This document shows positions 5,271 to 49,908 of a stretch of DNA of 64,000 bases, piece after piece. A program made the translations under genes and the position numbers. The notes under the pieces are model-generated. The model did not search any database. It had not been told where the DNA came from and saw only the letters and a program-made list of their open reading frames with translations. The stretch lies in the NCBI GenBank assembly GCA_964387845.1, contig CAYLXA010000001.1:288001-352000 (forward strand), written 5' to 3'. The stretch comes from an uncultured bacterium. GTDB lineage: Bacteria > Omnitrophota > Omnitrophia > Omnitrophales > Abzuiibacteriaceae. Every line of letters starts with the position of its first letter. Positions within the stretch are counted from its first letter, which is position 1.

Positions 5271-5285
5271 ATCTTAGGAAAATCT

Positions 5286-12137: not shown

Positions 12138-12139
12138 AG

Positions 12140-15117: not shown

Positions 15118-15212
15118 TTCCCTCTCCCTTTGGGAGAGGGCTAGGGTGAGGGATTTCTATAAATCCCACCACCCTCATCCTAACCTTCTCCCTCTAAAGA
15201 GGGAGAAGGGAT
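15118..15212. repeat. nested palindromic element, family ii (CCCTCTCCC-N3-GGGAGAGGG / GGGTGAGGG), copy A
   Basis: ccctctccctttgggagagggctagggtgaggg ... ccaccctcatcc ... cttctccctctaaagagggagaagg. It overlaps the 3' end of the PabC-like gene, whose C terminus reads PSPSLEGEG. Confidence 0.55.
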
Positions 15213-25000: not shown

Positions 25001-28000
25001 TTTTGTATCGTCCGGCCAAAATCTGGCGCCATACTTCAGTGAGAATATTTTTACGCCCAGATCTGTGGATCTGTAACCAAACTTCCAATCATGAACGTCT
25101 TGATCCAGCATGACCGATAAGGCCCATAGCATCAAATTTCGATACGTGAAACCCGGATAAGACTGCGAGAATTTTCGTGTAGACGGCGGTATATCGGCCA
25201 AACGTTCTTCGGGCCATGCCGATACAACACTAATGAACCGCTTGACATAATCGGCCAGCAGCTCGTTGTCCGAGGGTTTCTTGATTTCTTTCCCGTCAAA
25301 TTCCTCAATATGAAGACCGGTCGGACGCAGATGTATGACTTGCGTCAAGCCCAATGTCCAGTAAGCGTAAAATAAATCCTCTAAACCACCCGCAAGCAGA
25401 TGATCCAGACGGCCTGCAAATTTTTCAAATTCGTCCAGGTCTTTGAAATAGGGATCGATTAACGTTGCCAAAAATTGGTTGAGGTTGCCGAATTTCTTGT
25501 CAAGGCCCCGGTTTTCCCATTCCCGGCGCAATTCGACGCCGAGCTCGCGTAATTCCCTATTCGAAAATCCTTCGGGCAATACCTTGCTCCAATAAATGCG
25601 CCTGTCCTCTGAGCCGCTTCTGGGCCAAAACCGATTGGAGTCGTGCGGGCTCAATAGAAACGTCAGAGCTTCAAGGATATCGCCTTCCGTCAGACTGTCA
25701 TAAATCTTATTCGGAGAGCCCGCTTGATCCATCAAATCGCGAATCACATCCATAACTTGATCGACTTTTGAACGTTGGGTGACCGCGGCAGTTTGCCTAA
25801 GTTCCGAACGGTTTTTCAGAATTTGCCGCCGTTCTTCGAGCGTAAAAAATTGTTTTTCGTAAGCTCTTTTTGCGGCTTCCCGGATTTTTCTATTAAACCG
25901 GTCTAAATCAGTTATTTCCTTCTTTAAAAAATCAAGCCACTGTTTTGGTTCAATGGTCATTTCCCCGAAAAATTCGTCGCTCAAAAGCATCAACAGCTGC
26001 ACAAATGCGACTTTGTACAAAGGATCTTCCTGATCCAAGGCAGCCCGCATCGCATCTGATACCGGAAGTACCGGATTCAGATAAGGGAACAGGATTTGAG
26101 CCGGATAGGACGACCGGATTAATTCATTCAATTTAGCTTCTACTTCAAAGTAAGCATGGGCCAACAACCCCTGCTGATCGCCTTCATACCCGCCCAGCGC
26201 ATGAGCCAGCAAACTTCCGGGACGCAGGATAGCTTTCATCACATTAATCCAATAGAGCGATGTTGAGTAATCGTTTTCTCCCTTATAAAATTCGTTTGCA
26301 AACACATAGGCATCGGAATGGCTAAGTTCCTCCTCTAAAACTCCGCTCCGGTATAATTGTGCGACATACCCATAATCGCCCAAACTATAAAAATGCATTT
26401 GAATCCAATCTCGTAAGTAAGCGACGGGTGATTGATCAAAATTGGGAAATTGATACTGGCCCGTTTCATATAACTTTTTCAAATTTTGGTAATAATCAAA
26501 ATTTTCTATCGAAGGAACGTCGGTGCCTTCAATAATGACAATATGCCTGTCTTTCGCAAATGCACTTAGGTAACTGTCGCTCTTTCCGTCTCTCGATTTG
26601 AGGCGAACGGTGTAAACCGGAACAAACCGGCCTGCCGCAGAGCGCTGAGATTCCCTTTTGATAATTTTACCGACCAAGAGTCCGCTGCCGTTCACTATGT
26701 CCACGATCAGGCCACGTGGAATTAAAATATCGTCCGCGATTTTTGTTCCTATTTTTCCGATATCATAAATAGAAATCAAATCTTTGTGGCCAAATGAAAA
26801 AGCGGCATCAAAATCCGGTGAAAGAGGCCTGAGAACCTGGTTGAATGTTTCAACGGCCTCAAGACGGTTTAAGTCATTTAGACTGGCTTTTTCGACTAGG
26901 TACTTTAGCTTCGGCCAATAGCTCACCCAAAACCATTCCACAACATCAAAGCTGGGGCTATCCGGATTTAGGAGCCTAAACTCTCTGATTAAGTTGAGAA
27001 TTTGATTCGCCTGGCTGGTGTTGAGCGTGATCTTTCCGCGCAAAGCTTTGATAATGCCTTGCGCATTTAAATTTTGAGTTTCCAAAAATTCTTTCAGAAC
27101 ATCTACGGTAAAAAAGCGTTTAATATTTTTTACGCTTAATTTCGAAATGATGAGAGCATGCAGCGTTTGAACCGGATCCGTATTTACTGCTTGTGCCGTC
27201 TGATTGCGCAATTCAGAGCGGAGTAGCTCAGACTGCGGGGCAGCGGTTTGACCTTGCAACGGGATTTCCCAGAAATTGCGGGCGTTGCGGGCAGAATCGA
27301 AGAATGCTCTGGCTTTCGCACGGTTGCCTTTGGTTAACTCGAATAATCCAAAAATAATTGCGTAAGCTCTTTCCGTAAAGCTACGCGACTTTTTTAGCAC
27401 AAAGTCACGGGCCAGCCACCGGTAACGGAATGCGTCAAAATGATACTGAAAACCGGCTTCCGGATCGTGAATCTTTTTAATTGTATTGCGCGAGGCTCCC
27501 TGAGAGTAGTGCTGATCTAAATAATCGCGGCCGTAGTTGGTAATCCCTGCATAGATCTTCTTAAAGCCCGAACGCCGCGCGACATCTTGAAGAATCTGAA
27601 TCGCTTCCGGCATCAGTTCATCGAAATATTTTGCACCGTCATTGTTAAACTCGAAACTGTTGACCGTTAGTACCGGATCTCCATTGTCTTCCGATGCAAT
27701 CATCCACATCTGTGCCCGATGCTGATAGGCATCGCCTGAACCCTTGTGATCGATGTCCGCCAGGATAATTCCGTCGTCACTCAGGAGAGAGGGCAAAATC
27801 CAGGAGACAAAATGCTGCAGAGAAATACAATTTCCGATGGCTTCACTTGAAGTGAGAAAATCTATCGCGCCTTTCAGGGTCTTTTTGTCGTGAATTCTTA
27901 TTCGAATTCCCTTTTCTTTATTTTCGTAAACCCTGCCCTTCTCAAATTCAGAAACATTGATGCCGATTGCCTGCATTTTTTTCTCAATGGCTGAAACATG

Positions 28001-31000
28001 GCCTGTTTTGCGAAGTCTTTCTGACAAATAATCACGCAATCTTTTGTAATACAAAATTCCGGGCGCAATATTGAGCCGCGTGCTGATCAAAAAAGTTCCT
28101 GGCGCGATAATTCCCATCAAAATAAAAAACAAGGCAGCATTTGAAATGAGAGGATAAATGGTAAAAACGCCGAACCCGACCAGAAACGCGAAAGCGGTCG
28201 GCGCCACCCAAGCATAAATGGGCCTTGGCGGCTTTCTAAGGCCTTTCAAAATGCGTGGATTCATCGTGACAATGTCGAGAGCATCTGCAATGCTGATCCC
28301 GAGTGCGCGCCGCACTTTGGCAATTTCGGAAATTTTCATGCGGCTCAGGCGCGTGGCTTTCATAAATTTCTGAACCGCCATGAGTTTGTCAAAAGCGTCT
28401 TTTTTAAGACTGTCCCGCACCGCTTTGTCTTCGGAAAGCCTGCGCATAGCTTCTTGATTTGAGGCTGACCAGACTACGGCAATAACTTCTTCCGTTTTTT
28501 TCCGCTGGTCAGGCGAAAGTTTATCCAAAAACTTAAGCACATTGACGAGATCGCCGTCTTTAACGGACACGTTGTACAGAATTTCTTCAAAAAAGTACCG
28601 CAAATTCCGGTTTGGACTTGGAAAATATTCGAGCAACTTTTCAAGTTTCGCGATTGCGCGCGGAGGATAGCTCATTTTCTGCGCAACGGGATTTTCATTA
28701 ATTTCAGCGAGAATGGTTTCGATAAATTTTGGATATGCGCGGAGCTCGGATCGCTGCTCATCGGTTTTTTTTGCGATTGCCCTCCTTTCAGACTTATGCT
28801 GAAACCACCACATTCCTCCAAAAAGAAGCAGAAGCGGCGGGATCAAGGAAGCATTGTCCGTAAGCCAGGCAACGGGCCCGGTCACAACAAGAACAAGCGA
28901 GGCTGTAATTGCCTTAAGAAAATATTGTTTCCGGAACTTAAACCACCACGTTTTATACTGAGTCGGAAAAATCTTAACGCGGTTCGATGGTTGAATTAAA
29001 TCCGTTACATAACCAATCACTTCACCTTTTGGGAAAGCATACTCCAAAGGCTCGACCGGATACCCATAAACGTCTAAATATTGTTTTTGGGAAGGATCGG
29101 CATATTCGATCGATACAAGCTCGGGCTGTTTGCCGGATTTCTTAACATAATCGACAAGCCTCTTAGGCCCTTGATTGAGCGGATAAGCAAAATAAAGAAC
29201 TGATTTAAATCCGCATGCCCGGGCATAGTTCTCGATGATTTTTTGAATTCCCTTCGCCTTTGCATCAAAAATTCGCCCCTCCACACCGTCCACAAATAAA
29301 ATCGGCTGTTCTTTTCCGTCTTGATCCTTATAAATCGCGGCGGCGATTCTGGCCCGTACCCGGCGGCCTTCGCGCGTACGGAAATCAATCGCTGAAATAC
29401 TTTTGTTGTGCAAATAATTAAACGGGCCCAGCGCACCTTTTGTTCTCCGGTTTAATTTGTCAAGCCACGTGTTGCCGCGAAGCGACGCCGAAGAAAAGAA
29501 ATCCTTTTGATTGGTTAAATCAAACCACGGATCGCGCCGCCAAATCCGGGCTTCTACAATTGAGTCCGGTAAATTTCCCCAATCGTCAATCTTGGAGATA
29601 CTTTTCTGAAGGTATTGATTGGCCTTCGCGGCATTGGGGTTTACATATTGGCCCAGCTCTTGCAGCAACTTTTTTCCTTCCTCGACAGGCAATTCACCTC
29701 TTTTATTCCTGGCCAATTCTTCTTTGTGCGCATTGAAAAATTGAGTGACCGACTTCTTACCCTCCTTTAAATTGGGCGTGTACTGTCCGGGCTTAAACTG
29801 GCGGTCTTCGGTTGAACCCAAAAAATCCCTGAGTATTTTCTGGATAAACTCGGGGATGGTTTGATTTTCCGCGTCTTCGAATTCCCCTGCCGGTACTTTT
29901 TCAATATTATCCCCGCGAATTTGATAATAGACTTTGTAATCCGGATTATCCCAATTTTCGTTGATGCCGACCGATTTGAGACGCTCCATGGTTTGAATCG
30001 CTGCCTCGGTCTGGTCAAACCATTGCCGGTAACTTCGCCGCTTAAGCATGGAGGCCAGATCCAACGCGGAAATTGTTTTCCACGAAAAAATGAACATTCG
30101 TTTCGCAAATACCGCCAAAATGTAAACCAAGGCTGTGAAACCTGACGCCACAAACAAGCTTTCAATCCATCCTGCGGGATCAGAATTGTTGATCATTTCC
30201 CTAATATTTAAGCTTGCTAAATTTCCATCCATCCAAAAAGAAATAGCGGAATAGAAAATTGTGAGCGCTGCGCGTTGAACCGAAGCATAGAAATATCCAA
30301 TAACGCCAGTGAAGGAAACCGCGAGAAGATGCAGCCACGGGTTCTGAATGAGCGCCGTACGGGCGTGCGCAATCCGTGCGCGTTCTAATTTTTCTTCGTT
30401 AATTTTGTTCAAGTCAATCTTTAAACTTTTAAACTTTTTCCACAAAAATTTCAGCTCCGGGAAACCGTCTTTCTCCATCCGCTCGTCGATTTCGGCAATG
30501 GTGAGATCTGAATTCTCACGCAGTTCACTGGCTGCCTTTGGATTTTTGCTTTTTCCGTTTCCGGAAAAAGCGTTGCGCGTCAGAACACCGATCGTTTTAA
30601 ACACCAGCGCGGTGTTATAAAGTGCCGACCGGTCCCGGATATCGTTTAACTCCAGCTCTATGTCATGCGTGTCCATGCCAAACTTTCCGGTTCCGATACC
30701 CCGCTTTAGAGCGCTTGAGCTGAGAAAACCCGGCTTGGTGTGATGTAAAACACTTTCGATATAATTTTGATCAACTTCCAAAGGTAAGCGCGGCCTTGGC
30801 CCAAACCATTGCATGTCACCGCGGACAATCGACAAGAGCTGCGGAAGCTCATCAAGCCCCGTTCTGCGCAAAAACCATTCGTAAGGCGTAATGCTTTCAT
30901 CTGAAATGTTGAAATCAAGTTTCATGGTTTTAATTTTTCGTATCACAATCGTCTTGCCCTGAAAACCGATTCGCTCTTGAATAAAAAACATGGGGCCGCT

Positions 31001-33958
31001 TGTGATAATTTTCCGGATAAAGGCAAGCAAATAAACCAGCGGAAGAGTTAAAACCCACAAAACGAGCGCTGTGATTCTCCCTGCCGCCTCGGACAGATCA
31101 GGTTTCTTTGCCGCGGGAAGCGATAAAGCATTGGTTTCCTTCAAGCGCAATTCCGAGCGCGCTTTATCGATGTCGTTCGATTGAGAAGCCGAAGTCGGTA
31201 TTTCTCCGGTTGGGTGATTGCTGCTTACCGCATTTGCTTTTCCTTTTGAATGCAAATAAAAGGTGCCGACGGCGGATGTTAAATGTCCCAATCCGGCCAG
31301 AAGCACAACCTCGTTTGAATCTTTTCTGGATCCAAGATACGCGGTTTCTGCCATAAAAGATCCTCTGTCTTTTGCTTTGTCGTTGGGATGTGTCAAATAA
31401 TCAGGGGCGAATAACTGGTGCGACTCGATAGATTTCAACCATTTGGTAAAAAGCAGAATGAGAGAAACCACAAGAAACCACGGTGCAAAAAATGCAGCTA
31501 TTAAACTATCCCGAAGCGAATCCCCATGATCAAATATTTCACTGCCAACCTGCAATTTGTAAAGCAGGCGAAAATTTCGCTCGTGAAAAAATGGGATGCC
31601 TTCTCTCGCTAAGAAATAAGATAACTCCCGTACTTTTTTCTTGTTTAGCAGCATAAATTCAGAACCATGCACAATGCCAATCACATGAAAAGTACGCCCG
31701 CCGATTTTGACCATCTTACCGGAAAAACCAAAGCGTTCCGCAATCGGCGAATCTTGAAATTGCGCCATGGTTTCAGAAGCCGCCTTTCGCCAAATTGGAG
31801 TAGCGAAGTCTGAAAATACTCGGCGGTGATAACCGATATTTTTGCCTAAAAGACCGGCTTTTTTAAATTTCTGAAACAATTCGATGGGTTTTGATGATTC
31901 AATCATCCAAGTTCCGATAGTCCTTTCTGAAATTTTTAATTCACCCGCTCGATCCCAAAATTGTTTCTCAGACGGGTAACGTAAAACATTGATCAATAGC
32001 GGGAGGATAAACTTTTGAACAAAATCAGCGTAGGTAAAATTGAAACTTAAGAGAACCACATTCGCCAAAAGCCACGTGATAAAAATACTAATGGGAAAGC
32101 CAAACCGTGAAAGACTTAGCTGCATAAGTGCCTGTTTAATGCTTGATAAAAAATGAGCTGCGAGTGGATAGGTTTTGGGGAATAGAAGCATTAAAATCAA
32201 GGATCCCGACATTGCGGCTATCCCGTAAAATAAAAATGGAATAGCTTTCATCCCGATTTTTAATAGATGCTTCCGCTTTGCATCCGGGCTCCCGTTCTTG
32301 AGTCTAGATTCAGCATGAATGACATCCCCGGTTACCCGCAATTCCGACCGAGGCGCGGTTGGCGACAAGTGCAATTCCGAGCGCGGCTCTGCGCTTGCGG
32401 CAAACTCGTCAGGAATGACCGGCGATTCCAATAAGATATCCGATACATAATCGGCAGCAGTGCGGCGAACAACCGGGTCGGAATCACCAGCAGCAATAGC
32501 CATAACGGAAACAGCGCGCCAGTCGTGGTGGCGCGTTTGGTACAAGTAATCAAGTAAATTCAGAAGTTTGATTTTAAATTTTTGGAGATGCGGGTTTGGG
32601 GTGCTTGATCCCGATTGAAGTTCCAGAGCTTCTGAAAATGTGGCAAACAAAATATCGGGCGATACTTCATACAAAGAAAATTTTGAGTCGTAAGCCAGCA
32701 AATGTTCAATTCGGTCGATGATTGCAAAATTTCCACTTTGATATGCATTATAGAAATTGATCATGATTTGGCCCGCAACAATTCGCTGAACTAATTTTGA
32801 AACTTCCCCGCCCGTTACTTTAAAATAATATTTTTTTCTGGCTTTGAGCCCATCCAATTCGAATAACTCCCGCAGATTTTCTTCCACTTCCCTCTTGATT
32901 CTTTCAAATTCTATCCTTTTTTCAGAAAGAACATCTTCGAGCGGTTTTTGAGCGGCTTCCAAATTTTCCGTGGCTGGTATTTTCAGCTTTGGTTCTTTTT
33001 GGCCGGGCTGAGTAGAAAACTGAGAACACCCGACCGAAGCTAGTCCGATTAAAGAGAACAACTGAATCAATTTCAATATTTTGAATGCGCGCAGCTCTGA
33101 GGATTGAGATATTTTTGTGTAAACTTGAAAACTGGAGGAGCTATCCGGATGGATCTTGACTGTAACGCGTGAAAAATCGGGAGATGAAAAATAAGGCATC
33201 AATTCATGCTCAACGCCATAGTTGACCAATTTTCCGCCGGCTTTGAGATTTCTTTTGATCGTACTGGCTAGCCGCGCACGATTAGCTGTGCCATAACTAT
33301 AATAATAGACAATATCAGCTTGCTGCAAAAGCGCGGTCCAGCGCGTGTCATTAAAATCTCCGCGCAAAAATTCTACTTGGCCTTTTTTGATAATCCCGCG
33401 CTCCTCGGCCACAGAAAGTAACCGGAGACTGTCTGCGTAGAGATCCGGATCATATTCGATGCCGGTGATTTTTAAATTCGGATAACGGTGAGCAAGCATC
33501 AATGCATAAGCGCCCTGGCCATGGCCCAAGTCCACCATGGTAACCGGCTGGTCATGCGGGATCGGAAATTTTTCGACCGTTGCATTTATCGAATCAAGCC
33601 GGGTCTGTAGGTGAACGCCTTTTTCCGTGCGCCGGAGCTGAGCTGAGCTAAAATCAACTCCGGAATTTCGGAACAAAAGGCCGAGCACTTCCCTTGGATC
33701 CCTGGCCAATTCGACTGCTCGCAATTCCGAGCGCGGCTGAGTGTTTAATTTAACTGTGCCGCGGGCGATGGTGGGTAAATCCAGATCCAGAATACCGCCA
33801 TGCTGATTGGCTAAGCGATGGACTCCGACGGTGGTGAAATTATTTTTGAAGGATTCCGCGATCACAGACGAATCGCCGTAAGCGATCGTGCTGGTAACTG
33901 AAAAGGTAAGGACAAGTGTCAGAGCAACACTTTTTAAAAGATATGAGTTTAACTTCAC
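16031..33958 (-). CDS. giant 5975-aa composite ORF, possibly a polyprotein: signal peptide, SAM-MTase, lipoprotein, tentatively TraB/GumN-like membrane module, PglC-type phosphoglycosyl transferase, several unknown membrane/soluble modules, PPDK-like dikinase, histidine phosphatase, HPr-like domain and HEAT-like module, separated by about 21 R-S-E-L-R motifs
   Basis: A single uninterrupted reading frame starts at ATG 33958 (MKLNSYLLKSVALTLVLTFSVTSTIAYG, signal-peptide-like) and ends at TAA 16031. Domain calls come from motifs read directly in the translation, listed under the sub-features below. Confidence 0.7.
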   Translation of the reverse strand: MKLNSYLLKSVALTLVLTFSVTSTIAYGDSSVIAESFKNNFTTVGVHRLANQHGGILDLDLPTIARGTVKLNTQPRSELRAVELARDPREVLGLLFRNSGVDFSSAQLRRTEKGVHLQTRLDSINATVEKFPIPHDQPVTMVDLGHGQGAYALMLAHRYPNLKITGIEYDPDLYADSLRLLSVAEERGIIKKGQVEFLRGDFNDTRWTALLQQADIVYYYSYGTANRARLASTIKRNLKAGGKLVNYGVEHELMPYFSSPDFSRVTVKIHPDSSSSFQVYTKISQSSELRAFKILKLIQLFSLIGLASVGCSQFSTQPGQKEPKLKIPATENLEAAQKPLEDVLSEKRIEFERIKREVEENLRELFELDGLKARKKYYFKVTGGEVSKLVQRIVAGQIMINFYNAYQSGNFAIIDRIEHLLAYDSKFSLYEVSPDILFATFSEALELQSGSSTPNPHLQKFKIKLLNLLDYLYQTRHHDWRAVSVMAIAAGDSDPVVRRTAADYVSDILLESPVIPDEFAASAEPRSELHLSPTAPRSELRVTGDVIHAESRLKNGSPDAKRKHLLKIGMKAIPFLFYGIAAMSGSLILMLLFPKTYPLAAHFLSSIKQALMQLSLSRFGFPISIFITWLLANVVLLSFNFTYADFVQKFILPLLINVLRYPSEKQFWDRAGELKISERTIGTWMIESSKPIELFQKFKKAGLLGKNIGYHRRVFSDFATPIWRKAASETMAQFQDSPIAERFGFSGKMVKIGGRTFHVIGIVHGSEFMLLNKKKVRELSYFLAREGIPFFHERNFRLLYKLQVGSEIFDHGDSLRDSLIAAFFAPWFLVVSLILLFTKWLKSIESHQLFAPDYLTHPNDKAKDRGSFMAETAYLGSRKDSNEVVLLAGLGHLTSAVGTFYLHSKGKANAVSSNHPTGEIPTSASQSNDIDKARSELRLKETNALSLPAAKKPDLSEAAGRITALVLWVLTLPLVYLLAFIRKIITSGPMFFIQERIGFQGKTIVIRKIKTMKLDFNISDESITPYEWFLRRTGLDELPQLLSIVRGDMQWFGPRPRLPLEVDQNYIESVLHHTKPGFLSSSALKRGIGTGKFGMDTHDIELELNDIRDRSALYNTALVFKTIGVLTRNAFSGNGKSKNPKAASELRENSDLTIAEIDERMEKDGFPELKFLWKKFKSLKIDLNKINEEKLERARIAHARTALIQNPWLHLLAVSFTGVIGYFYASVQRAALTIFYSAISFWMDGNLASLNIREMINNSDPAGWIESLFVASGFTALVYILAVFAKRMFIFSWKTISALDLASMLKRRSYRQWFDQTEAAIQTMERLKSVGINENWDNPDYKVYYQIRGDNIEKVPAGEFEDAENQTIPEFIQKILRDFLGSTEDRQFKPGQYTPNLKEGKKSVTQFFNAHKEELARNKRGELPVEEGKKLLQELGQYVNPNAAKANQYLQKSISKIDDWGNLPDSIVEARIWRRDPWFDLTNQKDFFSSASLRGNTWLDKLNRRTKGALGPFNYLHNKSISAIDFRTREGRRVRARIAAAIYKDQDGKEQPILFVDGVEGRIFDAKAKGIQKIIENYARACGFKSVLYFAYPLNQGPKRLVDYVKKSGKQPELVSIEYADPSQKQYLDVYGYPVEPLEYAFPKGEVIGYVTDLIQPSNRVKIFPTQYKTWWFKFRKQYFLKAITASLVLVVTGPVAWLTDNASLIPPLLLLFGGMWWFQHKSERRAIAKKTDEQRSELRAYPKFIETILAEINENPVAQKMSYPPRAIAKLEKLLEYFPSPNRNLRYFFEEILYNVSVKDGDLVNVLKFLDKLSPDQRKKTEEVIAVVWSASNQEAMRRLSEDKAVRDSLKKDAFDKLMAVQKFMKATRLSRMKISEIAKVRRALGISIADALDIVTMNPRILKGLRKPPRPIYAWVAPTAFAFLVGFGVFTIYPLISNAALFFILMGIIAPGTFLISTRLNIAPGILYYKRLRDYLSERLRKTGHVSAIEKKMQAIGINVSEFEKGRVYENKEKGIRIRIHDKKTLKGAIDFLTSSEAIGNCISLQHFVSWILPSLLSDDGIILADIDHKGSGDAYQHRAQMWMIASEDNGDPVLTVNSFEFNNDGAKYFDELMPEAIQILQDVARRSGFKKIYAGITNYGRDYLDQHYSQGASRNTIKKIHDPEAGFQYHFDAFRYRWLARDFVLKKSRSFTERAYAIIFGLFELTKGNRAKARAFFDSARNARNFWEIPLQGQTAAPQSELLRSELRNQTAQAVNTDPVQTLHALIISKLSVKNIKRFFTVDVLKEFLETQNLNAQGIIKALRGKITLNTSQANQILNLIREFRLLNPDSPSFDVVEWFWVSYWPKLKYLVEKASLNDLNRLEAVETFNQVLRPLSPDFDAAFSFGHKDLISIYDIGKIGTKIADDILIPRGLIVDIVNGSGLLVGKIIKRESQRSAAGRFVPVYTVRLKSRDGKSDSYLSAFAKDRHIVIIEGTDVPSIENFDYYQNLKKLYETGQYQFPNFDQSPVAYLRDWIQMHFYSLGDYGYVAQLYRSGVLEEELSHSDAYVFANEFYKGENDYSTSLYWINVMKAILRPGSLLAHALGGYEGDQQGLLAHAYFEVEAKLNELIRSSYPAQILFPYLNPVLPVSDAMRAALDQEDPLYKVAFVQLLMLLSDEFFGEMTIEPKQWLDFLKKEITDLDRFNRKIREAAKRAYEKQFFTLEERRQILKNRSELRQTAAVTQRSKVDQVMDVIRDLMDQAGSPNKIYDSLTEGDILEALTFLLSPHDSNRFWPRSGSEDRRIYWSKVLPEGFSNRELRELGVELRREWENRGLDKKFGNLNQFLATLIDPYFKDLDEFEKFAGRLDHLLAGGLEDLFYAYWTLGLTQVIHLRPTGLHIEEFDGKEIKKPSDNELLADYVKRFISVVSAWPEERLADIPPSTRKFSQSYPGFTYRNLMLWALSVMLDQDVHDWKFGYRSTDLGVKIFSLKYGARFWPDDTKRRTGKQSMTEYLSRMLTDVPELDQNGVETGRKISNEKIEKLVAEVLSRNESDWVRLGFRSPWDVSEVQASMLIRTIGDRSKNPLRDAVLTLPLPNLQDPELNVGINTSAPVYLKYAPLPRHLIFPTQAAFIHRRKEAVRRRLFFGEPFRTLFPNLKTLTAQKRSELRSDGRTNPMSYKEFEKALRDYQTLMKLSFGRGGKHLSFEQNQAVGARKEAIIDLLKKNSKEHLQNLIREFILKADLPLDKKQSYLWYVSSAMSPDRYRMTDAFFKEHLIPIYLSKTNSPEENRIFLELAAAYFNEHYIKADIHHDLEATFRQASPDDLGKLIHLLLHLRTIGHEFFRELISILLSVSPADPLAAAFVAAQGLVRDIPSEGRKRIEYPQMSLYLLHQPNARAAYFYLMKVIEAERKGGVSTDNSQDRIISYSRRLDNNASYPGEFGRGWFSHFRDGIHRNLNRSDFENTRRVLAYWLTLDESILKESNWTLLRDDMTKDFNPATLQTYSKLLNRFVKALAAKGKISKSDPEAFLDEILDIPEREVVAIYEEANRDEDVSEIDYERVQLMTQLYLAFADHFGTRVATIVPFLKGETEDLRDGGYLKKKMTAITRFMREDYDRLLMLIDSDDHAAIFSAIVKVQNDLKEFLLSGEENQKKVLGQAEKSIGRDGEDSADEDADDIDQEWNDMHEEGDYLYDLRTLVEMSEKLSILASEKIAHVQEKIEKINSVDDLRRELPNLIALGRFIQASGLGGVDFDQLMVELDSGSIKASQLYDLVHTLEAEVHKITRQLNNTMRAAMQYSLDEVGYHDLAKLWREHTSLFKIKTKTEDDQTYQIYDFPPEGKERLEAAVIDELIRNSGATAFDRALMKFDAVLASALSQGQDEAIREDAGAERPDDFEQHLYRFGENETDERPELLSLWSKKGLNLIRMTHERIPVPPGVILSAKLVTKPDIFRSDEFRQKIAAEIERLKRYSEYPDLKLILYARSGSAFMLPGLLATVSNVGMNDAEAEALAQKSGDAWFAYDTYAEFIRSFSINVLGIPEAEFEQVLNVKEKEDLSADGMKAVVEQCKAIVARHGKIIPNDMMDQVMMAVEAVYASWDSEEARAYRTRHQISQEWGTVVILQKGVFGNLKPTDDGKISGAGHAVLRTLPDGHDVLQGKFRFHSIGDQLMSRAGQNYILIGNGERIRPDEQTFEALQPELYAQVFEYARKLKNIFRYNQQFEFTIERGKIWIVQSNDDFVTDQYPEFADSTDNQPIARGHGVSGGAIRGLAANSIEAAEKLLGELVSHPRADVDGVILILDRVNPEMINRIPKGVHILAKTISVHAETLAQKEGISAVYGVPDMVFQPEKHLWLIAGRDIADGDVISMDGHENPLLYHQSGNVYLGSVAIKSRAIRSELRNSEAESAAPKTMLLDAGHDAIRAALQDSDLSFKQLKKLLYLTNRILQAEPWCIHFRELAIPFLTGLLGNKSRAERFADHFSFHQLESAKDALSALGLPDEVILILQELQESPSAPADHENVSSKGARAELRQIVLGYLQGSSAHIRTDVLHGLNSETDWRLARKLYGQLNHFLESHRAGIAIAPLFKMLNAQVFIARSIVRRNGDHLGGVTYHSLHPVLSNVKSIFLSLYAGDHPISYDGPVSDEFLKVRDKDFTYLERLLTHELAETLVEHNQYALPINFERLEHFANKNLPLSIVNIPHDKTAVYQIAKRIYETRLQALERQFGKKKQVLDYSQEEIETQFLSRYSIVSAREFFFEAQSLYWLDPDFVRKHDPVMFQFLSALVYWENGKLVVPTSAIQPDLLMKARVELRKNVSETLQQMGFWVNQSTGQLFYKEPYFPPALDLDLYVIRHGETHIIAEGLRTGRKRFQGSGMDNEGAQLTPKGRVQAQADAEKLFEKFKDQITANPDQFVVIINPLGRVRDTAEPFIRLVREKLGIELKVMIDPDTKEIFQGEWEGLTNEQIKAQFGREQFKAARSYQKWSVLAKPEHGESFAHLIIRAAAFWKRMNEQYRGKTVILFNHAAFSGALQVLKKDMRVVHPEGHIDWRRAGLKTGEITHFTDDYFRAQRAEVLRRDEAHQVHGVRGKNISNEVGTRPTHVYRRWEGWIPVPPKSEQPPREKSGVRSELRNDLENEEPIELPFAVDQSHHSTDLARLEVELHNAELAGDLDTIEEVTARIQAVRAARRGPFQSFPRPPKHRSELRNYTVIGISAGAIGIGVGALLYYSLIKPRRIALDEQQLRIKILLSRTEVLLNRFSSFILSVSDRGNSLAAEANDYYLRILPELRKAKSALKGMKEEHGLLLKEEEEWLAQTSQAIDSYEAFLDHQINEYKKSVTPTDRNMSELREGESNSIEINVTVKNRQGVHASPAMFIVEMAQAALAKNVSVKIKNLNKGSAEWIEADNPMALMTLEAVKDTRLAFQFEFKTDEERISAERFAVAFHELVEVRLFGEDGGELGGSEAFVDEMFKISETELAERFQKLTEPMPGPDAGSQKSELRSVQKLLRNLSHPNFTIRKTRADELGKGNEVGLETLLQYLAEPVIPVDEWKPLIEVAPKNFNPDMLRQSARFAALYVLNWWIERDTGFYIPVLKAVLNQEKSSWTAQSETDINRIYEQNSSNPLGANQPLSLIQIMKLFRRWYSELQMKNRSLTLSENERRSFRHAKYIHRAVRILEEIADREVPVIDAQFYEQAGVKSLTSEHRNFTIAQKTIGSRYDVSIHLEGEINKELLPESLQKIKPIDFQSAIEKSILNQADAFNNTEIGDKVQSEVLGLPLIMAKVQSEVSGETVFNFRVIAKTEKTIAKGRVEVKENPLFRDLQTEIAPVARSEMRRIVSNARSFDNQIVTALQNRSEMREGKVFTRNAFFGEKGSLAVVGRNLSDVYGSYMVIVTNRAELRVIDEINATIANPKNRIVPVEDYHKARAELRNLGLSMAIIGVSDDAVAVPFLEKIADKVIIWNQAFVDHVLSAAAYLVGKFRAQMQVFYSA
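17701..17950 (-). other. HPr-like phosphocarrier domain
   Basis: IEINVTVKNRQGVHASPAMFIVEMAQ resembles the HPr active site GLHTRPA (the His-15 region). NPMALMTLEAVKDTRLAFQFE resembles the HPr Ser-46 region. Bounded by MSELR and KSELR. Confidence 0.5.
18622..19573 (-). other. histidine phosphatase (phosphoglycerate-mutase-like, branch 1) module
   Basis: LYVIRHGETHIIAEG (the RHG catalytic motif), verified on the DNA at about 19440-19470. Bounded by KARVELR and VRSELR. Confidence 0.6.
20810..22274 (-). other. pyruvate-phosphate-dikinase / PEP-synthase-like ATP-grasp nucleotide-binding domain plus phosphohistidine swivel domain; no PEP-binding TIM barrel found
   Basis: KKGLNLIRMTHERIPVPPGVILSAK and YARSGSAFMLPGLLATVSNVGMND match the PPDK_N motifs GGKGANL...PVPPGF and VRSSAxxEDMPGMMDTVLNLGLND. 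KTISVHAETLAQKEGISAVYG matches the PEP-utilizer mobile-domain phosphohistidine motif. GTNDL was not found. Confidence 0.65.
30526..31150 (-). other. PglC/WbaP-type polyprenyl-phosphate phosphoglycosyl transferase (Bac_transf) module, aa ~937-1144
   Basis: N-terminal re-entrant helix ITALVLWVLTLPLVYLLAFIRK and the signature LRRTGLDELPQLLSIVRGDMQWFGPRPRLP. The roughly 200-aa size equals a free-standing PglC. Flanked by ARSELR and AASELR. Confidence 0.75.
31162..32340 (-). other. polytopic membrane module with a TraB/GumN-like motif (tentative), aa ~540-932 of the giant ORF
   Basis: GGRTFHVIGIVHGSEF resembles the TraB/GumN/Tiki G-T-x-H motif. Several TM segments. Bounded by RSELR on both sides. 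Confidence 0.3.
33103..33721 (-). other. class I SAM-dependent methyltransferase module of the giant ORF (aa ~80-285)
   Basis: VDLGHGQGAYALMLAHRYPNLKITGIEYDP (motif I plus an acidic residue at the end of beta2) and ADIVYYY. Bounded by PRSELR upstream and SSELR downstream. Confidence 0.6.
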
Positions 33959-34084: not shown

Positions 34085-35578
34085 TTATCTGTTGGAAAGG
34101 GCTTCGACAAGCGCTTTTCCCTTGTGAAGCGTCTCTTGATACTCTGCGGCGGGTTTTGAATCATGCACAATACCGGCGCCGACTTGGAAGTAACCCTTTT
34201 GCTGATTAATCACGATTGTGCGGATCACAATGTTGAGATCCAGATCACCATCAAAACCAAAATAGCCAATGGAGCCGGTATAAATCCCGCGTTTGAAAGG
34301 TTCCAGCTCTTCGATAATTTCCATACAGCGAATCTTTGGGCATCCCGTGATAGTTCCGCCCGGGAACATCGCGCGTACCAAATCAAATTGATCCGCATCA
34401 TCACGAAGCTCGCCCTTTACGTTTGAGACAATGTGCACAACGTGTGAATATTCCTCAAGCGCCATCATCTCGCTCACGCGCACCGTGTGCGGCTTGCACA
34501 CGCGCCCCAAATCATTGCGTTCCAGATCTACTAGCATAATGTGCTCGGCGCGCTCTTTATCATTTGAGATAAGTTCACTGCGCAGTTTCTGATTTTGCAC
34601 TGCCGTTTTCCCGCGCGGCCGGGTCCCTGCAATCGGGCGCGTTTCGCACGCACTTCCCCGCTTTTTGATGAGGCGCTCCGGCGAAGAGCTAATCACCTGC
34701 AAATCGCCGAGACGAAAGAAACTGGAAAAAGGTGACGGATTGATATCCCGCAAACGTTCATAGAGTTTCTCAGAACTTCCTGAGAAATCAAACGAGAACC
34801 GCTGTGAAAGATTGGCTTGATAAATATCGCCTGCCTCTATGTAATCTTTGCCTTTTTTGACAATCGCTTCGAATTTTGATTTTTGAATATCAGATTTAAA
34901 ATTCTGAATTTGTATTTGTCCATTTTGATAAAGCGTTTGATTGAGTTTCGAGAGAGTCTCTTGAATCCAATTTTGACTTTCACTTAGCTGATCCTCAAAA
35001 CTCTTTCTCTCGGAAGGCATTAAATTGCTGATGAGATAAATCGCTTTCTTTGATTCATCGTAAGCGATCAAATTTCGGATGAATAGGAAAACAGCTTCAT
35101 CCAGTTTTTGGTCATTCTTCGCCCGGTTGGGCAGGCGTTCAAAATCCCACGCCAAATCATAGGAAAAATAACCAACCGCGCCGCCTAAAAATTCAGGGCC
35201 GGCGTTCCATTTTCTTCCGCGATAAGTTTTAAAGAGCTTGCGCATTTCCAGAAGAAAATCACCGCGTTTTTTTACGACCCTCACCCTGCCCTCTCCCTCA
35301 GGGAGAGGGAAACGCGAAGCGTGGGTGAGGGATTTTTCGATCGAAATATTTTTACCCTGCTTTCGCAAGATTAAAAACGGGTCGCTGGCCATATAGGAAA
35401 ATGTACCGGTTTTCTGGTGAAAGCGCGCGCTATCCAGGATAAACGAATTTTCGGAAGACTGGATCCTGCGGAAAGTTTCCCAGGAACTCAACGAAGCGGG
35501 GATTTTTTGGATCAGCGGAACAATGAAGCCTTTTTGGAAATATTTTCGAAGTGTCGTGATGGGCAGAACGTTATTCAT
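34085..35578 (-). CDS. pabB: chorismate-binding enzyme, aminodeoxychorismate synthase component I (PabB) / anthranilate synthase component I family
   Basis: C-terminal chorismate-binding signature (PIAGTRPRG...ERAEHIMLVDLERNDLGRV...GGTITGCPK). Assigned PabB-like because pabC-like and folC genes are nearby and no trpG/trpD is present. Confidence 0.65.
   Translation of the reverse strand: MNNVLPITTLRKYFQKGFIVPLIQKIPASLSSWETFRRIQSSENSFILDSARFHQKTGTFSYMASDPFLILRKQGKNISIEKSLTHASRFPLPEGEGRVRVVKKRGDFLLEMRKLFKTYRGRKWNAGPEFLGGAVGYFSYDLAWDFERLPNRAKNDQKLDEAVFLFIRNLIAYDESKKAIYLISNLMPSERKSFEDQLSESQNWIQETLSKLNQTLYQNGQIQIQNFKSDIQKSKFEAIVKKGKDYIEAGDIYQANLSQRFSFDFSGSSEKLYERLRDINPSPFSSFFRLGDLQVISSSPERLIKKRGSACETRPIAGTRPRGKTAVQNQKLRSELISNDKERAEHIMLVDLERNDLGRVCKPHTVRVSEMMALEEYSHVVHIVSNVKGELRDDADQFDLVRAMFPGGTITGCPKIRCMEIIEELEPFKRGIYTGSIGYFGFDGDLDLNIVIRTIVINQQKGYFQVGAGIVHDSKPAAEYQETLHKGKALVEALSNR
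35278..35331. repeat. family ii nested palindromic element, copy B, inside the pabB-like coding frame
   Basis: ccctcaccctgccctctccctcagggagagggaaacgcgaagcgtgggtgaggg. It is translated in frame as FPLPEGEGRVRVV near aa 85-100. Confidence 0.5.
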
Positions 35579-36887: not shown

Positions 36888-36976
36888 ATTAACGTAAATT
36901 CAAATCTCAAATTTCAAAATAATTTTGATATTTGAAATTTGAATTTGTTTTGAGATTTGATATTTGAATTTTGAAA
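36888..36976. repeat. AT-rich array of ATTTGAAAT / TTTCAAAT direct and inverted repeats
   Basis: aaatctcaaatttcaaaataattttgatatttgaaatttgaatttgttttgagatttgatatttgaattttgaaatt. The region fills the gap between the tRNA-binding-protein stop and the DUF1015 start. Confidence 0.45.
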
Positions 36977-37321: not shown

Positions 37322-37361
37322 TCTATCACTAACCAAATAACGGTGGCAAGAAGGCTTCTCT

Positions 37362-37515
37362 AGCAGTATGGGATATCTCTTCCGGCACCAGCAGTTCGCA
37401 AGCTCCTGCGGCTTGCGCCTGCCTGCGCGCTCGCCCGTTGAACCCGCCGAAAAGCATGGCGGGGCCAAGCTTCAACGGGCTCCGCGAGCTGCCTTTAGAG
37501 ATATCCCATACTGCT
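37362..37515. mobile_element. MITE-like element with perfect 19-bp terminal inverted repeats (AGCAGTATGGGATATCTCT ... AGAGATATCCCATACTGCT) flanking a 116-bp GC-rich core
   Basis: The inverted repeats are read directly at 37362-37380 and 37497-37515. A large structured 5'-leader hairpin is the alternative interpretation. Confidence 0.3.
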
Positions 37516-37599
37516 TTACTTTAATAGCGGAAAACAGAAAATCGTTAAAGCTTACCTTCGGAGGGAATAATTTGCCGAATGCGGCTCACGGAACCACGA

Positions 37600-37690
37600 G
37601 GAGCTAGGCCCCCCGACTCTATTTCGCAAAGCGAGACAGCGGGGGTCCGAGTGGTGAGTGCGCAGGCGGCTTGACGCCGCAGCCCGTCAC
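37600..37690. repeat. family iii element (ggCCCCCc...TTCGCAAAGCGAG.CAGCGGGGGTC...GCGCAGGCGG), copy 1
   Basis: About 65 nt are near-identical to 40964-41028. An inner TCGC-AAA-GCGA hairpin is nested inside a C5/G5 stem. Confidence 0.5.
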
Positions 37691-37987
37691 CTACATTGAA
37701 TTTCCTATTGAAGGTGAGGGCTGTCCCAATTCACCTATGAATAAACGTCTTAAGGCTTTAATGATAATTGGGACTGGAACGGCCGAAGTGCCGGTGCCGG
37801 CAGACAATCCTTGCCGGTGCTTAATAAAGATGGAAAACTAGTTTATTGTTGTAAGTTATTATAAATAAATGACTTATGGAATATAGTTTTTCTTGTCAGG
37901 TAGCGAAAAAATGATAGAATATCGGTCTCATTTTTGACTTTGTATCCGCGAATGTGGCCCTCAGTAAGCGTCTAAAGGGAGAGAAAA

Positions 37988-39097: not shown

Positions 39098-39175
39098 CCC
39101 GTCATTGCGAGGCGCTTAAATTGTCGCCGAAGCAATCTACGTTTTAAGCTTTGAAGAAGCCCTTCGCTCAGTGAA
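39098..39175. repeat. family iv element (CCGTCATTGCGAGGCGC ... CGCCGAAGCAATCT), copy 1
   Basis: ccgtcattgcgaggcgcttaaattgtcgccgaagcaatctacgtt closely matches the reverse complement of 46660-46703. Confidence 0.5.
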
Positions 39176-39377
39176 TTCAACGTGAGAAATCTATTTGCTT
39201 AGGCATTGGAACACCTTCCACCGTTCCTACAATACTTAACGCTGTAGGCCGTCGGCTTTCCAACGCCTTCACACATGATTTCTCTCTCACGAATTCAATT
39301 CGCTTCGGCGCTTCTTCAAAGCTTTCCGCGCCACCCGCATCTAAATCCTAAGGCCGCAAATTGCGACCTTAGAATTT

Positions 39378-39917
39378 CTACCCAATCTTCCCGGGCCGAT
39401 GCGGATCCATCTCAAAACCAATCGCATCCGTAGTCGGCGGCGCCAAAAGCGGCCTAATCATTTTGAACAATCTCTGCAAAGCTCTGTCGTGATCGAGCAG
39501 AACCTTCTCAATTTCATCCAATCGTCCGTGCAGAATTTGATTCAGGTTGAAAACTTCTCTCAATCTCACAAAAGCACGGATCACGTAAACGCTCATACGG
39601 ACAGCTCGGTCACTGTTTAAAATGTTGGCTGCCATTAACGCCCCGTGTTCTGTGAAAGCAAAAGGAAGATACCGATCGCCACCCCGACCCTCTTTCTTTG
39701 AGGTCACAATCTGTGACCTCAAAAATTCTGCTTCCTCCAGAGTAAGCTGAAACATGAAATCTGCCGGAAAACGGCTTCGGTTACGTTTGACAGCTTGATT
39801 GAATGCTTTTGTGCTCACCCCATAAAGCTCCGCTAAGTCACGGTCAAGAATAACGCTCTGACTCCGGATGATGAGAACACGATTTTCTACAGCTAATTTA
39901 GGACCTCTTTTAGACAT
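39378..39917 (-). CDS. ORF6N (KilA-N-related) DNA-binding domain protein
   Basis: VLIIRSQSVILDRDLAELYGVSTKAFNQAVKRNRSRFPADFMFQLTLEE...GRGGDRYLPFAFTEHGALMAANILNSDRAV is typical of the ORF6N domain. The gene lies in an AT-rich stretch. Confidence 0.55.
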   Translation of the reverse strand: MSKRGPKLAVENRVLIIRSQSVILDRDLAELYGVSTKAFNQAVKRNRSRFPADFMFQLTLEEAEFLRSQIVTSKKEGRGGDRYLPFAFTEHGALMAANILNSDRAVRMSVYVIRAFVRLREVFNLNQILHGRLDEIEKVLLDHDRALQRLFKMIRPLLAPPTTDAIGFEMDPHRPGKIG

Positions 39918-40070
39918 GAAACACCCCTCTTATTGGTTTTAAATGGAGGGGGGATTTTAATTTTGTTTTTTACTGCGGGAGATATGGAATTATATATAAC
40001 TTTTACGATTAATCAACACTCAACTTCTAGCCTGTCCCCTTAGAAGGTGCCTGGCACTTTTTTTATGAGA

Positions 40071-40739
40071 TCAAATGACCCCTTTCATTAATGTTTCTTT
40101 AACTTTCTTGGCATTTTTTAGTCCTTCGTCAATCAAAGAAATAAAATACTCAATTTCTCCATTTAAAGTACTAGGATAAAAATCTCCAACCCGACAGCAT
40201 CCTTCACAAATTCCATCCATAGCTTGAACGTAAGCGGTTTCAGCAAATGTAAGCCATTCACGCGTTTCATTCCATGTTTCCTTCCCATCATGAGTACGCC
40301 AGGGGAAATTATGAACACGTTGAATATTCCGATGAGGATTTATCTTGTCACTAATATCTTTTATTTTTTCCTCGTACTCATCAAAATGAGATAAAAACTC
40401 TTTTCGTTGTTGTTTTAACCTATCTTTTGAGAAAGTCTGTCTTTCTAATTTTAGTTCAATATTTTCTTCTGAAACTTCTTTGCTTTTTTGCATTAAATTC
40501 CATAAACTAGCTTCACTAGAACGACCAAAAATCTTTCCTAAAGCGAGAATGTACTTTGTTTCCAAAGCATCTCGAATAAAGCTGAATAAGCCACCAAATT
40601 CTCGTTCAAATCCTTCTGATTGAACAAGCCCGTTATTCCATTTGAATAATAAAGCATGGAAAATGTTAGCCTCGCAAAGATCTCTGCTTACACAGGTTTC
40701 TATTACCTTCAGTGAATCTTGAACTTCATCCATCATCAA
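40071..40739 (-). CDS. hypothetical protein; possible HEPN-like candidate (R-x5-H in PHRNIQRVH), partner of the ORF6N gene
   Basis: 222-aa ORF, noticeably more AT-rich than its neighbours. No confident motif. Confidence 0.4.
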   Translation of the reverse strand: MMMDEVQDSLKVIETCVSRDLCEANIFHALLFKWNNGLVQSEGFEREFGGLFSFIRDALETKYILALGKIFGRSSEASLWNLMQKSKEVSEENIELKLERQTFSKDRLKQQRKEFLSHFDEYEEKIKDISDKINPHRNIQRVHNFPWRTHDGKETWNETREWLTFAETAYVQAMDGICEGCCRVGDFYPSTLNGEIEYFISLIDEGLKNAKKVKETLMKGVI

Positions 40740-40832
40740 CCTCCAATAAATTCATGATTCTGTACCAATTATAAAAGCATTCATATTTTATGCCCCCAAT
40801 TCGCAGAAGACAACCTGGTTCTCGAAATAGAA

Positions 40833-40908
40833 CGCCCTCACCCCCTCCGGGCCTAAGGCCCGATAGGGCCGGAGGCTCACCCTACCCCTCTCCCAAAGGG
40901 AGAGGGAA
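40833..40908. repeat. family ii nested palindromic element, copy C
   Basis: gccctcaccccctccgggcctaaggcccgatagggccggaggctcaccctacccctctcccaaagggagaggg. Confidence 0.5.
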
Positions 40909-40959
40909 AAACAAAGGAAGAATCTGGCTTTGTGGAGGCGGCTCTCGGAATCCTTCAGA

Positions 40960-41070
40960 GCTTGGTCCCCCACCGTTTTGTTTCGCAAAGCGAGGCAGCG
41001 GGGGTCTGAAGGATGAGAGCGCAGGCGGTCGAGCCCGCGGGAGGCGAGAACCGCCGGCGCCGGAACAAAG
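40960..41070. repeat. family iii element, copy 2, followed by further GC-rich palindromes
   Basis: ggtcccccaccgttttgtttcgcaaagcgaggcagcgggggtctgaaggatgagagcgcaggcgg. The spurious 94-aa plus-strand ORF 40790-41074 translates repeat DNA. Confidence 0.5.
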
Positions 41071-41081
41071 CTAGATTCTGA

Positions 41082-46021: not shown

Positions 46022-46029
46022 TTTTTATC

Positions 46030-46120
46030 CAGTGTTAAGTTGTAAGTGATAAGTTTTAAGTTATTCAATTACTTACCACTTATAACTTATCACTTACCAC
46101 TATGTTACAAACTTACAAAA
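46030..46120. repeat. GTAAGT-heptad hairpin element, copy 2 (family i)
   Basis: gttaagttgtaagtgataagttttaagtt ... acttaccacttataacttatcacttaccac ... acttac. It fills the sucC-start to gamma-CA-stop gap. Confidence 0.55.
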
Positions 46121-46620
46121 CGTCCCCGCGCGTGTTCCGCTGCAAGCTGAGCGTACCGCTTGGCCCATTCGATCTGGCCTTTGACTTCTTTCTTGGTCAA
46201 TTTCCGCTTAAATTTAGCCGGCATTCCAAGATATAAACTCTCAGGTTTTACCTTCATCCCTTCCGTCACAAGCGCTCCGGCGCCCACGAGTGCGCCTTCG
46301 CCAATCACCGCGTCATTTAAAATAATCGCGCCCATTCCGATCAAGGCGCCCGATTTTACCGTACACGCATGCAAAATCACATTGTGCCCAACCACGCAAT
46401 AATCACCCACGTAACAGCCGCGCTCGCGCTCTAAATGTACGAGCGAGAGATCCTGAATGTTTGTGTATTTACCGATCACAATTTCATTAATGTCGCCGCG
46501 CAGCACCACGCCGGGCCAGATATTGGCATAATCCTTGAGCGTCACGCGCCCGATCACTTGCGCAGACGGATGAACCCAGACATTCTTCCCGAGTTTCGGC
46601 TTATAAGTAAAAGTCGTCAT
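46105..46620 (-). CDS. gamma-carbonic-anhydrase-like hexapeptide-repeat (left-handed beta-helix) protein
   Basis: Hexapeptide repeats and a His triad pattern (VHPSAQVIG...IGKYTNIQDLSLVH...VGHNVILHAC). Start at ATG 46620 (MTTFTYKPK). Confidence 0.7.
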   Translation of the reverse strand: MTTFTYKPKLGKNVWVHPSAQVIGRVTLKDYANIWPGVVLRGDINEIVIGKYTNIQDLSLVHLERERGCYVGDYCVVGHNVILHACTVKSGALIGMGAIILNDAVIGEGALVGAGALVTEGMKVKPESLYLGMPAKFKRKLTKKEVKGQIEWAKRYAQLAAEHARGRFVSL

Positions 46621-46703
46621 TGCGAGACATAGTGATTGGTGTCGAAGCAATCTACGTTCTGAGATTGCTTCGGCGAAGTTTTCAAAGCGCCTCGCAATGA
46701 CGG
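46615..46703. repeat. family iv element, copy 2 (complete palindromic version)
   Basis: gtcattgcgagacatagtgattggtgtcgaagcaatctacgttctgagattgcttcggcgaagttttcaaagcgcctcgcaatgacgg. Outer inverted repeat GTCATTGCGAG / CTCGCAATGAC; inner inverted repeat GAAGCAATC / GATTGCTTC. Confidence 0.5.
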
Positions 46704-49815: not shown

Positions 49816-49818
49816 TTT

Positions 49819-49908
49819 TCAGTCGTAAGTTGTAAGTGGTAAGTCGTAAGTTAATAAAATGGTAAGTTTTTGCTTCTTACTTACCACTTATCACTTACGA
49901 CTTACAAC
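49819..49908. repeat. GTAAGT-heptad hairpin element, copy 3 (family i)
   Basis: cgtaagttgtaagtggtaagtcgtaagtt ... cttacttaccacttatcacttacgacttacaac. Spans sdhC start to mdh stop. Confidence 0.55.

Follow-up and report, generated by a model that had tools for sequence, protein, structure and literature searches.

Two GC-rich stretches of about 65 nt, lying in a 64-kb window of bacterial DNA (the whole stretch analysed, 64,000 nucleotides), are the apical parts of two copies, A and B, of a GC-rich element of about 155 nt. The element folds as a three-way junction, is present in a third copy, C, and belongs to a widespread family that is uncatalogued, being absent from Rfam. With a probability of about one half, it is a dispensable, structure-dependent interspersed element that leads the life of a REP/REPIN sequence with a new architecture. 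Two sets of observations back this reading: (i) its gain or loss among close relatives, its random orientation and its in-place inversion, and (ii) dispersed near-identical paralogues, no transcription signals, nesting with other repeats and the insertion of other mobile DNA into copies. Against it stand a copy number that looks low and the finding of neither a mobilising enzyme nor an excision or insertion intermediate.

Fold and covariation

A gapped degenerate pattern, made from the blocks common to copies A, B and C, was scanned against metagenome contigs. It matches 35 metagenome loci (loci and contigs are designated here by L numbers), 28 of which are confirmed by a second covariance model, R2; the first model, R1, was built from copies A and B. 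The remaining seven loci resemble GC-rich coding DNA. The 28 confirmed relatives come from 241 million records searched, and the environmental metagenomes that hold members include those of groundwater and activated sludge. Since the matches were retrieved with the three pattern blocks, the invariance of these blocks is partly a matter of construction. The 3' arm and the outer stem are conserved though they lie outside the search pattern; because the matched loci share this sequence (the second arm and the closing outer stem), they represent a real family and no search artefact.

All confirmed relatives fold as a single three-way junction. The outermost helix, P0, is a long outer stem of 15-26 bp that is variable in sequence. 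P1 is formed by GCUCNC paired with GNGAGC, inside which lies an invariant GGA/GA internal loop. It is followed by P2, a variable stem of 7-10 bp, by a conserved 7-nt bulge, GCUYGGY, and by a variable hairpin, P3. The second arm consists of GGCGG, a variable stem and an CGCNGGAG loop, and then GAACCGCC / GAACCGCCGGU. The G+C content of the element is 53-71%, in loci that otherwise have 44-59%.

This fold is beyond doubt. In a 24-member alignment, RNAalifold predicts 36 pairs, and 28 of the 36 have double compensatory changes; five helices covary, and about 45 unpaired or junction positions are conserved. The proportion of paired cells is 95.7% compared with 68.9% in shuffled and 29-40% in slid controls. 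The score for covariation, 0.677, falls to 0.162 after shuffling, and none of 500 shuffles attains the observed 0.677. Relatedness among the aligned sequences means that their independence is overstated by the shuffle controls, a problem of which the slid controls are free. A column-pair screen for pseudoknot or tertiary pairs returned only trivial low-variation columns. The two strands are not equivalent: G-U pairs outnumber A-C pairs by 24 to 10 (p = 0.024), and the sense strand folds better by a mean of 4.9 kcal/mol (Wilcoxon p = 3e-4), so that one particular strand is the folded one. Such a bias is compatible with RNA and single-stranded DNA alike and does not separate them.

A coding role for the element, in a larger gene or as a small ORF, is hardly credible. 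Open frames do cross it, for example at 40790-41074 (94 aa) and 37368-37607 (79 aa), but ten ORFs spanning the element have no match in Pfam and the variation is pairwise-compensatory rather than codon-like. As the stem lengths vary, the frames are also inconsistent between members.

An alternative that is possible, though doubtful, is an uncatalogued class of structured non-coding RNA, such as a self-cleaving ribozyme or a protein-binding scaffold, kept in one to a few paralogous copies. Very strong covariation of the five helices around invariant loops and junctions speaks for it, as do the preference for G-U over A-C, the more stable sense strand and the small number of copies per contig. 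To our knowledge, a design with about 45 conserved junction positions and five covarying helices is more elaborate than any known single-stranded DNA transposon end and is typical of functional RNA. The outer stems of 15-26 bp would also suit this alternative: processing of the RNase III type could act on this long stalk and so free the three-way junction from read-through transcripts. Small ribozymes (twister, hammerhead) likewise occur without gene association, in either orientation and in clusters. However, no ribozyme or RNA model of Rfam scores at the element even at E <= 10, where the matches are noise only.

The 130-nt unit occupies the apex of a larger palindrome of about 276 nt in roughly half of the metagenome loci. 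This shell carries covarying hairpins of its own, a conserved loop CCCCAGCGAGG, a block ACCRTGCCCGC and inverted ends. It is seen at the following loci:

L086, 2965-3238: shell
L089, 1317-1592: shell
L092, about 5005-5281: shell
L104, 5953-6219: shell
L094, L098, L100, L101 and L114: shell

The sole candidate among the fetched loci for a shell that is apparently core-less ('empty') is L116 (around 444-454). The shell is absent from the 64-kb window.

Copies in the window

A scan of the 64-kb window with R2 yields exactly three copies, all within 3.7 kb:

37570-37808, plus strand: copy A, split by another small repeat (R1 101.9 bits; R2 41.9 bits over 37568-37696, the 3' domain being absent)
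37570-37682, plus strand: 5' two-thirds of copy A, enclosing 37607-37669
37683-37774, plus strand: family X insertion of 92 nt in the P5 loop of copy A, directly after CCGCAG, aligned with five copies from L105, L088, L110 and L086
37776-37808, plus strand: putative 3' remnant of copy A, degenerate, read by eye against the 24-member consensus, with no model score
40920-41078, plus strand: copy B, full length, with an extended P3 (R2 103.9 bits, E 5e-32, over 40925-41076; R1 113.8 bits), enclosing 40964-41028
37362-37515, minus strand: copy C, diverged yet canonical, complete (R2 129.5 bits, E 1.6e-40, over 37369-37505)
37516-37569, no strand: AT-rich spacer of 54 nt between the 5' ends of copies C and A, within a block of about 480 nt (about 37350-37840)

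The preliminary description of the window had recorded two intergenic copies of a structured repeat, at 37607-37669 and 40964-41028, and both are confirmed in place and in their intergenic siting. An ungapped direct repeat of 61 nt (37609-37669 and 40968-41028) has 80% identity and a blastn-short E-value of 2.6e-8, and it contains an exact core of 26 nt, TTTCGCAAAGCGAGRCAGCGGGGGTC, at 37622-37647 and 40981-41006. RNAfold agrees with the proposed hairpin, TCGC-AAA-GCGA nested inside a C5/G5 stem, in both copies. The two stretches of about 65 nt had been called near-identical, which holds for the 26-nt core but not for the flanking stem, where six of ten base pairs differ. Their extent was also underestimated: the 65 nt comprise P3 with its apical extension, the 3' strands of P2 and P1 and the start of P4, which is only the apical part of a unit of about 155 nt, and the real units measure about 155-240 nt. 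The third copy, on the minus strand, had been missed as a member. The element at 37360-37516, which holds copy C, is probably the repeat listed separately as 'family ii', in which case the two families of the description (ii and iii) are one.

The similarity between A and B continues farther 5', into GCGGCTCNCGGAA, and in this wider frame each copy is a single long hairpin with a 10-bp stem, P2. Four of the six differing base pairs of this stem are exact double compensatory changes, and the other two are tandem G-A/A-G in copy A. The intergenic DNA around A and B has a G+C content of about 60-67%, and the whole window 46.6%. An exact 21-nt core has zero matches in genome, metagenome and viral contig collections, so that the apical extension of A and B is private to this lineage in these data.

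It is very improbable that the similarity of A and B is meaningless, arising by chance, from an assembly artefact or from a decaying local duplication. The 26-nt core does occur in two copies only and nowhere in three public collections, but it has no match in 100 shuffled windows, even with three mismatches (chance expectation 0), and copy B is identical in an independent assembly (Logan contig L001). Chance is further opposed by the four exact compensatory double changes in P2 and by the 28 relatives from other metagenomes that have the same fold.

In the 5' part of copy A, the 5' arm of the outer stem, ATTTGCCGAATGC, leads into P1 (GCTCAC) and the GGA loop. The strands of P2 are ACCACGAGGA and TCCGAGTGGT and the 7-nt bulge is GCTAGGC; P3 (C5/G5) is tipped by a TTTCGC-AAA-GCGAGA hairpin and is followed by GAGTGCGC, P4 (GGCGG) and the 5' strand of P5 up to CCGCAG. 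At this point, the family X insert (CCCGTCACCT..AGGTGAGGG, then CTGTCCCAATT...AATTGGGAC) disrupts the copy and breaks its 3' arm. The 3' strand of P5 is absent, and 37776-37808, which reads GGAACGGCCGAAGTGCCGGTGCCGGCAGACAAT where the family consensus is GAACCGCCGGTGCCGGAAG..., is probably what remains of the 3' end.

Copy B is closed by the outer stem GAATCTGGCTTTGT-GGA-GGC / GCC-GGA-ACAAAGCTAGATTC and possesses P1. Its P2 strands are ATCCTTCAGA and TCTGAAGGAT, its bulge is GCTTGGT, and it has the same apical extension of P3 as copy A, P4 of GGCGGT/ACCGCC and P5 of CGAGCC-CGCGGGA-GGCGAG. The fold has a z-score of -3.05. Only 4 nt separate the end of copy B from the stop codon of an agmatinase gene on the opposite strand.

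Copy C is detected by R1 over 37417-37494 on the minus strand (49.6 bits, E 4e-7). Its outer arms are 26 nt long and form an inverted repeat (37362-37387 / 37490-37515). The 10-bp P2 stem (GCCCGTTGAA / TTCAACGGGC) is wholly different from that of A and B yet complementary, and P3 is short (CCCGCC..GGCGGG), lacking the apical hairpin of A and B. Retained are GGCRGCUCNCGGA, GCUWGGY, the C/G stem and GAGNGCGCAGGC, and the 3' domain is complete. Copies C (minus) and A (plus) are arranged head-to-head with their 5' ends 54 nt apart. The outer (terminal) arms of copies A, B and C have no sequence in common.

Gain, loss, inversion and disruption

A close relative, L117/L118, was found through a 96%-identical ORF6N protein, and its DNA is 74-82% identical to the window. 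All three copies are absent from it at the syntenic positions of a 20-kb locus, and the gapped pattern has no match on the relative's 86-kb contig. The block of about 480 nt at 37350-37840, which holds copy C, the spacer and copy A, is represented by about 52 nt. In the more distant relatives L002-L004, short spacers are found without the element. A close relative that does without any of the three copies counts against a non-coding RNA class.

Other copies persist. Intact orthologous copies are kept in L088/L114, where the flanking proteins are 74-90% identical, and in L102/L103, which is more readily explained by a host-level function than by the decay of a selfish repeat; the keeping of the element at orthologous positions while the stems turn over speaks likewise for an RNA. 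At the orthologous loci L089 (1317-1592) and L092 (about 5005-5281), the whole 276-nt unit is present in opposite orientations at 84% identity, within flanks that align on the same strand at 84-98% identity. This is the result either of an inversion in place or of repeated insertion at one site. Both versions of the unit are intact, and such an inverted unit is a further point against an RNA. Two copies are found on one contig in L086 and L089, with shell arms about 92-93% identical, beside unrelated genes.

Copies of the element are also disrupted by other mobile DNA. Family X has entered the P5 loop at the same site, after CCGCAG, in copy A and in L105. In L110, an IS110-family element (DEDD_Tnp_IS110 and Transposase_20) at 283-1782 interrupts the shell within its 5' arm, at the CCCCAGC|GAGG loop. 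The disruption of copy A, L105 and L102 is again unfavourable to an RNA class.

The IS110-family element in the L110 shell recalls the targeting of REP sequences by IS621.

Genomic context

The window looks like core chromosome of an Omnitrophota-like bacterium. Its inositol-phosphate synthase is 73-75% identical to those of Omnitrophota MAGs, and the ORFs scanned are housekeeping genes except for two that lie between copies A and B, one encoding an ORF6N protein and the other an AbiU2-like HEPN protein. There is no transposase-like domain among the 30 window ORFs scanned, and no RAYT gene was seen in the 64 kb.

Copies C and A are located between divergent genes for a tRNA-binding-domain protein and inositol-phosphate synthase. 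The best promoter-like sites of both genes lie between those genes and C/A, which places the two copies upstream of the sites. Copies A and C each share the orientation of their own downstream gene, and copy B and L096 are antisense to both adjoining genes. An all-against-all BLAST of the ORFs within 6 kb of the elements reveals no recurrent neighbouring protein. No conserved promoter or terminator is seen in the flanks of the element, which, like the antisense placement of B and L096, speaks against an RNA class.

A cis-acting RNA of the neighbouring genes (riboswitch, leader, attenuator or dedicated terminator) is improbable, as neither the gene nor the orientation is consistent. The shared orientation of A and C with their downstream genes would agree with such a role, and so would the many members found 5-180 nt beyond the end of a gene and the U-rich tract UUCCUUUGUUUUU that follows the complement of copy B, 4 nt past the agmatinase stop. 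Nevertheless, the genes on either side of the element at about 20 loci are unrelated, sense placements are about as frequent as antisense ones, promoter-like sites separate A and C from their genes, and the relative keeps the same genes without the element.

The copy number looks low. Strict-pattern matches number one on a 1.1-Mb contig, one on a 232-kb contig and two on a 113-kb contig. Inspection of the flanks for target-site duplications brought to light none that recurs; the sole candidate is an 8-nt direct repeat, TGAGCGAA, in L095.

An association with ORF6N, a gene near the element in the window and in L094, was considered and is attributed to chance: the family has at least 8000 members, and ten loci round four ORF6N homologues (L117-L126) are free of the element.

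The ORF6N gene belongs to a variable islet (window 39378-40739; L117 8718-9827). In the window, the islet holds ORF6N and the AbiU2-like HEPN gene at low G+C (26-44%); in L117, ORF6N is retained and a different gene of 369 aa replaces AbiU2 and the copy B segment.

Relation to known repeats and structured RNAs

A match in Rfam to a known element had been named in the preliminary description as a finding that would explain the repeat away. With Rfam 15 at gathering thresholds, there are 0 matches in the whole window and none at the element in 15 loci. Viral contigs contain no match to the gapped pattern, blastn searches of plasmids and phages are also negative, and a literature search on the element sequence and on Omnitrophota repeats found nothing relevant. 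The preliminary description had suggested a small structured RNA or another REP/MITE class. Structure is borne out by the conserved three-way junction and its covariation in 24 members. Membership of a REP/MITE class is borne out in part: three copies in 3.7 kb, absence from a syntenic relative, mixed orientation and nesting with repeats agree with it, but there is no GTAG/CGTC tag and no recurrent target-site duplication, and the terminal arms are unconserved among the window copies.

Several properties are shared with the REP/REPIN sequences that are mobilised by RAYT (TnpA-REP), a Y1 HUH transposase encoded by a single-copy gene. Both are GC-rich extragenic palindromes without a fixed orientation, frequently sited at the ends of genes or in the gap between two divergent ones. 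Compensatory changes are documented for REPIN hairpins (PMC3116915) and affect 28 of 36 pairs here, and the head-to-head copies C and A resemble the inverted doublets of REPINs. REP elements are known targets of IS110 (PMC11208160), as is the element here, and in both cases persistence by vertical descent is possible. There are also differences. One criterion for REPs given in PMC3733652 is a GTAG or CGTC tag at one end of a short imperfect palindrome. REPs are simple tagged hairpins of 20-40 nt found in tens to hundreds per genome, whereas the element here is a three-way junction of 130-155 nt that lacks a GTAG/CGTC tag and in which about 45 positions, unpaired or at the junction, are conserved; its outer arms start with unrelated sequences, and its copy number is apparently low (three in the 64-kb window).

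Structured MITE-like repeats such as ERIC/IRU, Correia, RUP and BOX are intergenic imperfect palindromes of about 100-300 nt. The element falls within this size range and is likewise an intergenic imperfect palindrome, present or absent between relatives and nested in repeats, and the 276-nt subfamily of shell plus core has conserved inverted ends. Unlike in MITEs, ends are conserved only inside this shell subfamily, the arms of A, B and C being unrelated, no target-site duplication recurs, and conservation resides in internal loops rather than in the ends. We know of no parental IS of the element.

Orphan RNA motifs and small ribozymes (twister, hammerhead, hatchet, pistol) also have covarying helices round invariant junction or loop nucleotides, an inconsistent gene neighbourhood, both orientations and local clustering. 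However, the junction strands of 0-1, 3-4 and 2 nt do not fit a hammerhead core, and no Rfam covariance model scores the element. Finally, the attC sites of integrons are imperfect palindromes of 55-140 nt in which structure prevails over sequence and folding is strand-specific. In contrast with the element, attC sites keep their basal R''/R' boxes (RYYYAAC / GTTRRRY) and vary at the apex, and at the element there are no conserved R boxes, no cassette array and no integrase, the neighbours being housekeeping genes.

Proposed mode of life

As an interspersed element, the three-way junction would be non-autonomous and would have been gained in this lineage, possibly recently. It would settle in tolerated intergenic spots, between divergent promoter-like sites or just past a stop codon, could be flipped in place and would itself serve as a landing site for other mobile DNA. 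By analogy with RAYT proteins and REP hairpins, its spread and persistence would rely on a trans-encoded protein that recognises the folded single strand, either as ssDNA or as a transcript. Resident copies may behave as strong hairpins, and a terminator could be formed by the complement of copy B, as UUCCUUUGUUUUU follows it, 4 nt after the agmatinase stop.

If a protein recognises the fold, this would be an interspersed element with a recognition structure far more elaborate than REP hairpins. More tentatively still than an RNA class as such, and on the unlikely side, the family could be a new functional structured nucleic acid, either a small mobile self-cleaving or scaffold RNA or a mobile element that is recognised by its three-way-junction fold and not by terminal repeats. 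A fold-recognised mobile element, if true, would be a transposition or recombination substrate of an undescribed kind. If the family acts as RNA, it would be a well-supported new motif, with 28 covarying pairs and conserved loops; such motif candidates have previously proved to be ribozymes or components of riboproteins. The element comes from poorly known uncultured bacteria, the closest relatives of the window being Omnitrophota-like MAGs, and the covariance model from this analysis permits a direct census of it.

Other repeats in the window

Family X is a second small repeat of about 85-95 nt, in which a covarying hairpin precedes GCCCCAATTTCC-N-GGAAATTGAT-N-GTATTGGGAC. Several independent loci carry it within or beside three-way-junction elements:

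Window, 37683-37774: family X copy
L105, 2070-2146 and 1880-1957: family X copies
L088, 201-283: family X copy
L110, 1-95: family X copy
L086, 3330-3405: family X copy

A CGTC-tagged repeat, CGTCATTGCGAG...CGAAGCAATC, is present in the window at 39100-39151 and 46615-46666 (to about 46701). It has a 79% match in L117 at 14553-14637, a different place within the region aligned to trpE, which suggests that this family moves and may sit inside coding DNA. A palindrome family, CCCTCTCCC-NNN-GGGAGAGGG, has four copies (15120-15150, 35289-35319, 40886-40916 and 58941-58971), of which one falls inside the ORF for anthranilate synthase (34085-35578) and another immediately 5' of copy B. AT-rich palindromic repeats (AGTTGTAAGTGGTAAG... 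and its complement) occur at three gene ends (12132-12208, 46025-46101 and 49813-49910).

Positions 39146-39324, which separate the inositol-phosphate synthase gene from the ORF6N gene, form a palindrome of 179 nt. Its 15-nt arms (AAGCTTTGAAGAAGC / GCTTCTTCAAAGCTT) are perfect, and a further inverted repeat is nested inside. The arms have 13 nt in common with the outer stem of L087, which is probably a coincidence; a common outer stem was rejected, since on a rough estimate chance alone would give about 0.4 such matches and the two interiors show no relationship. The Rfam model COG2827, an RNA motif, is matched weakly and in part at 37813-37867 (19.7 bits for a threshold of 49.1; E 4.1); this match covers unpaired ends only and is probably also due to chance. 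Very AT-rich nested palindromes, with 30-nt arms that are 87-92% complementary, lie at 36896-36971 between the DUF1015 and tRNA-binding-domain genes. A giant minus-strand ORF of 5975 aa extends over 16031-33958 of the window, and its equivalent in L117, at the same place, exceeds 3800 aa.
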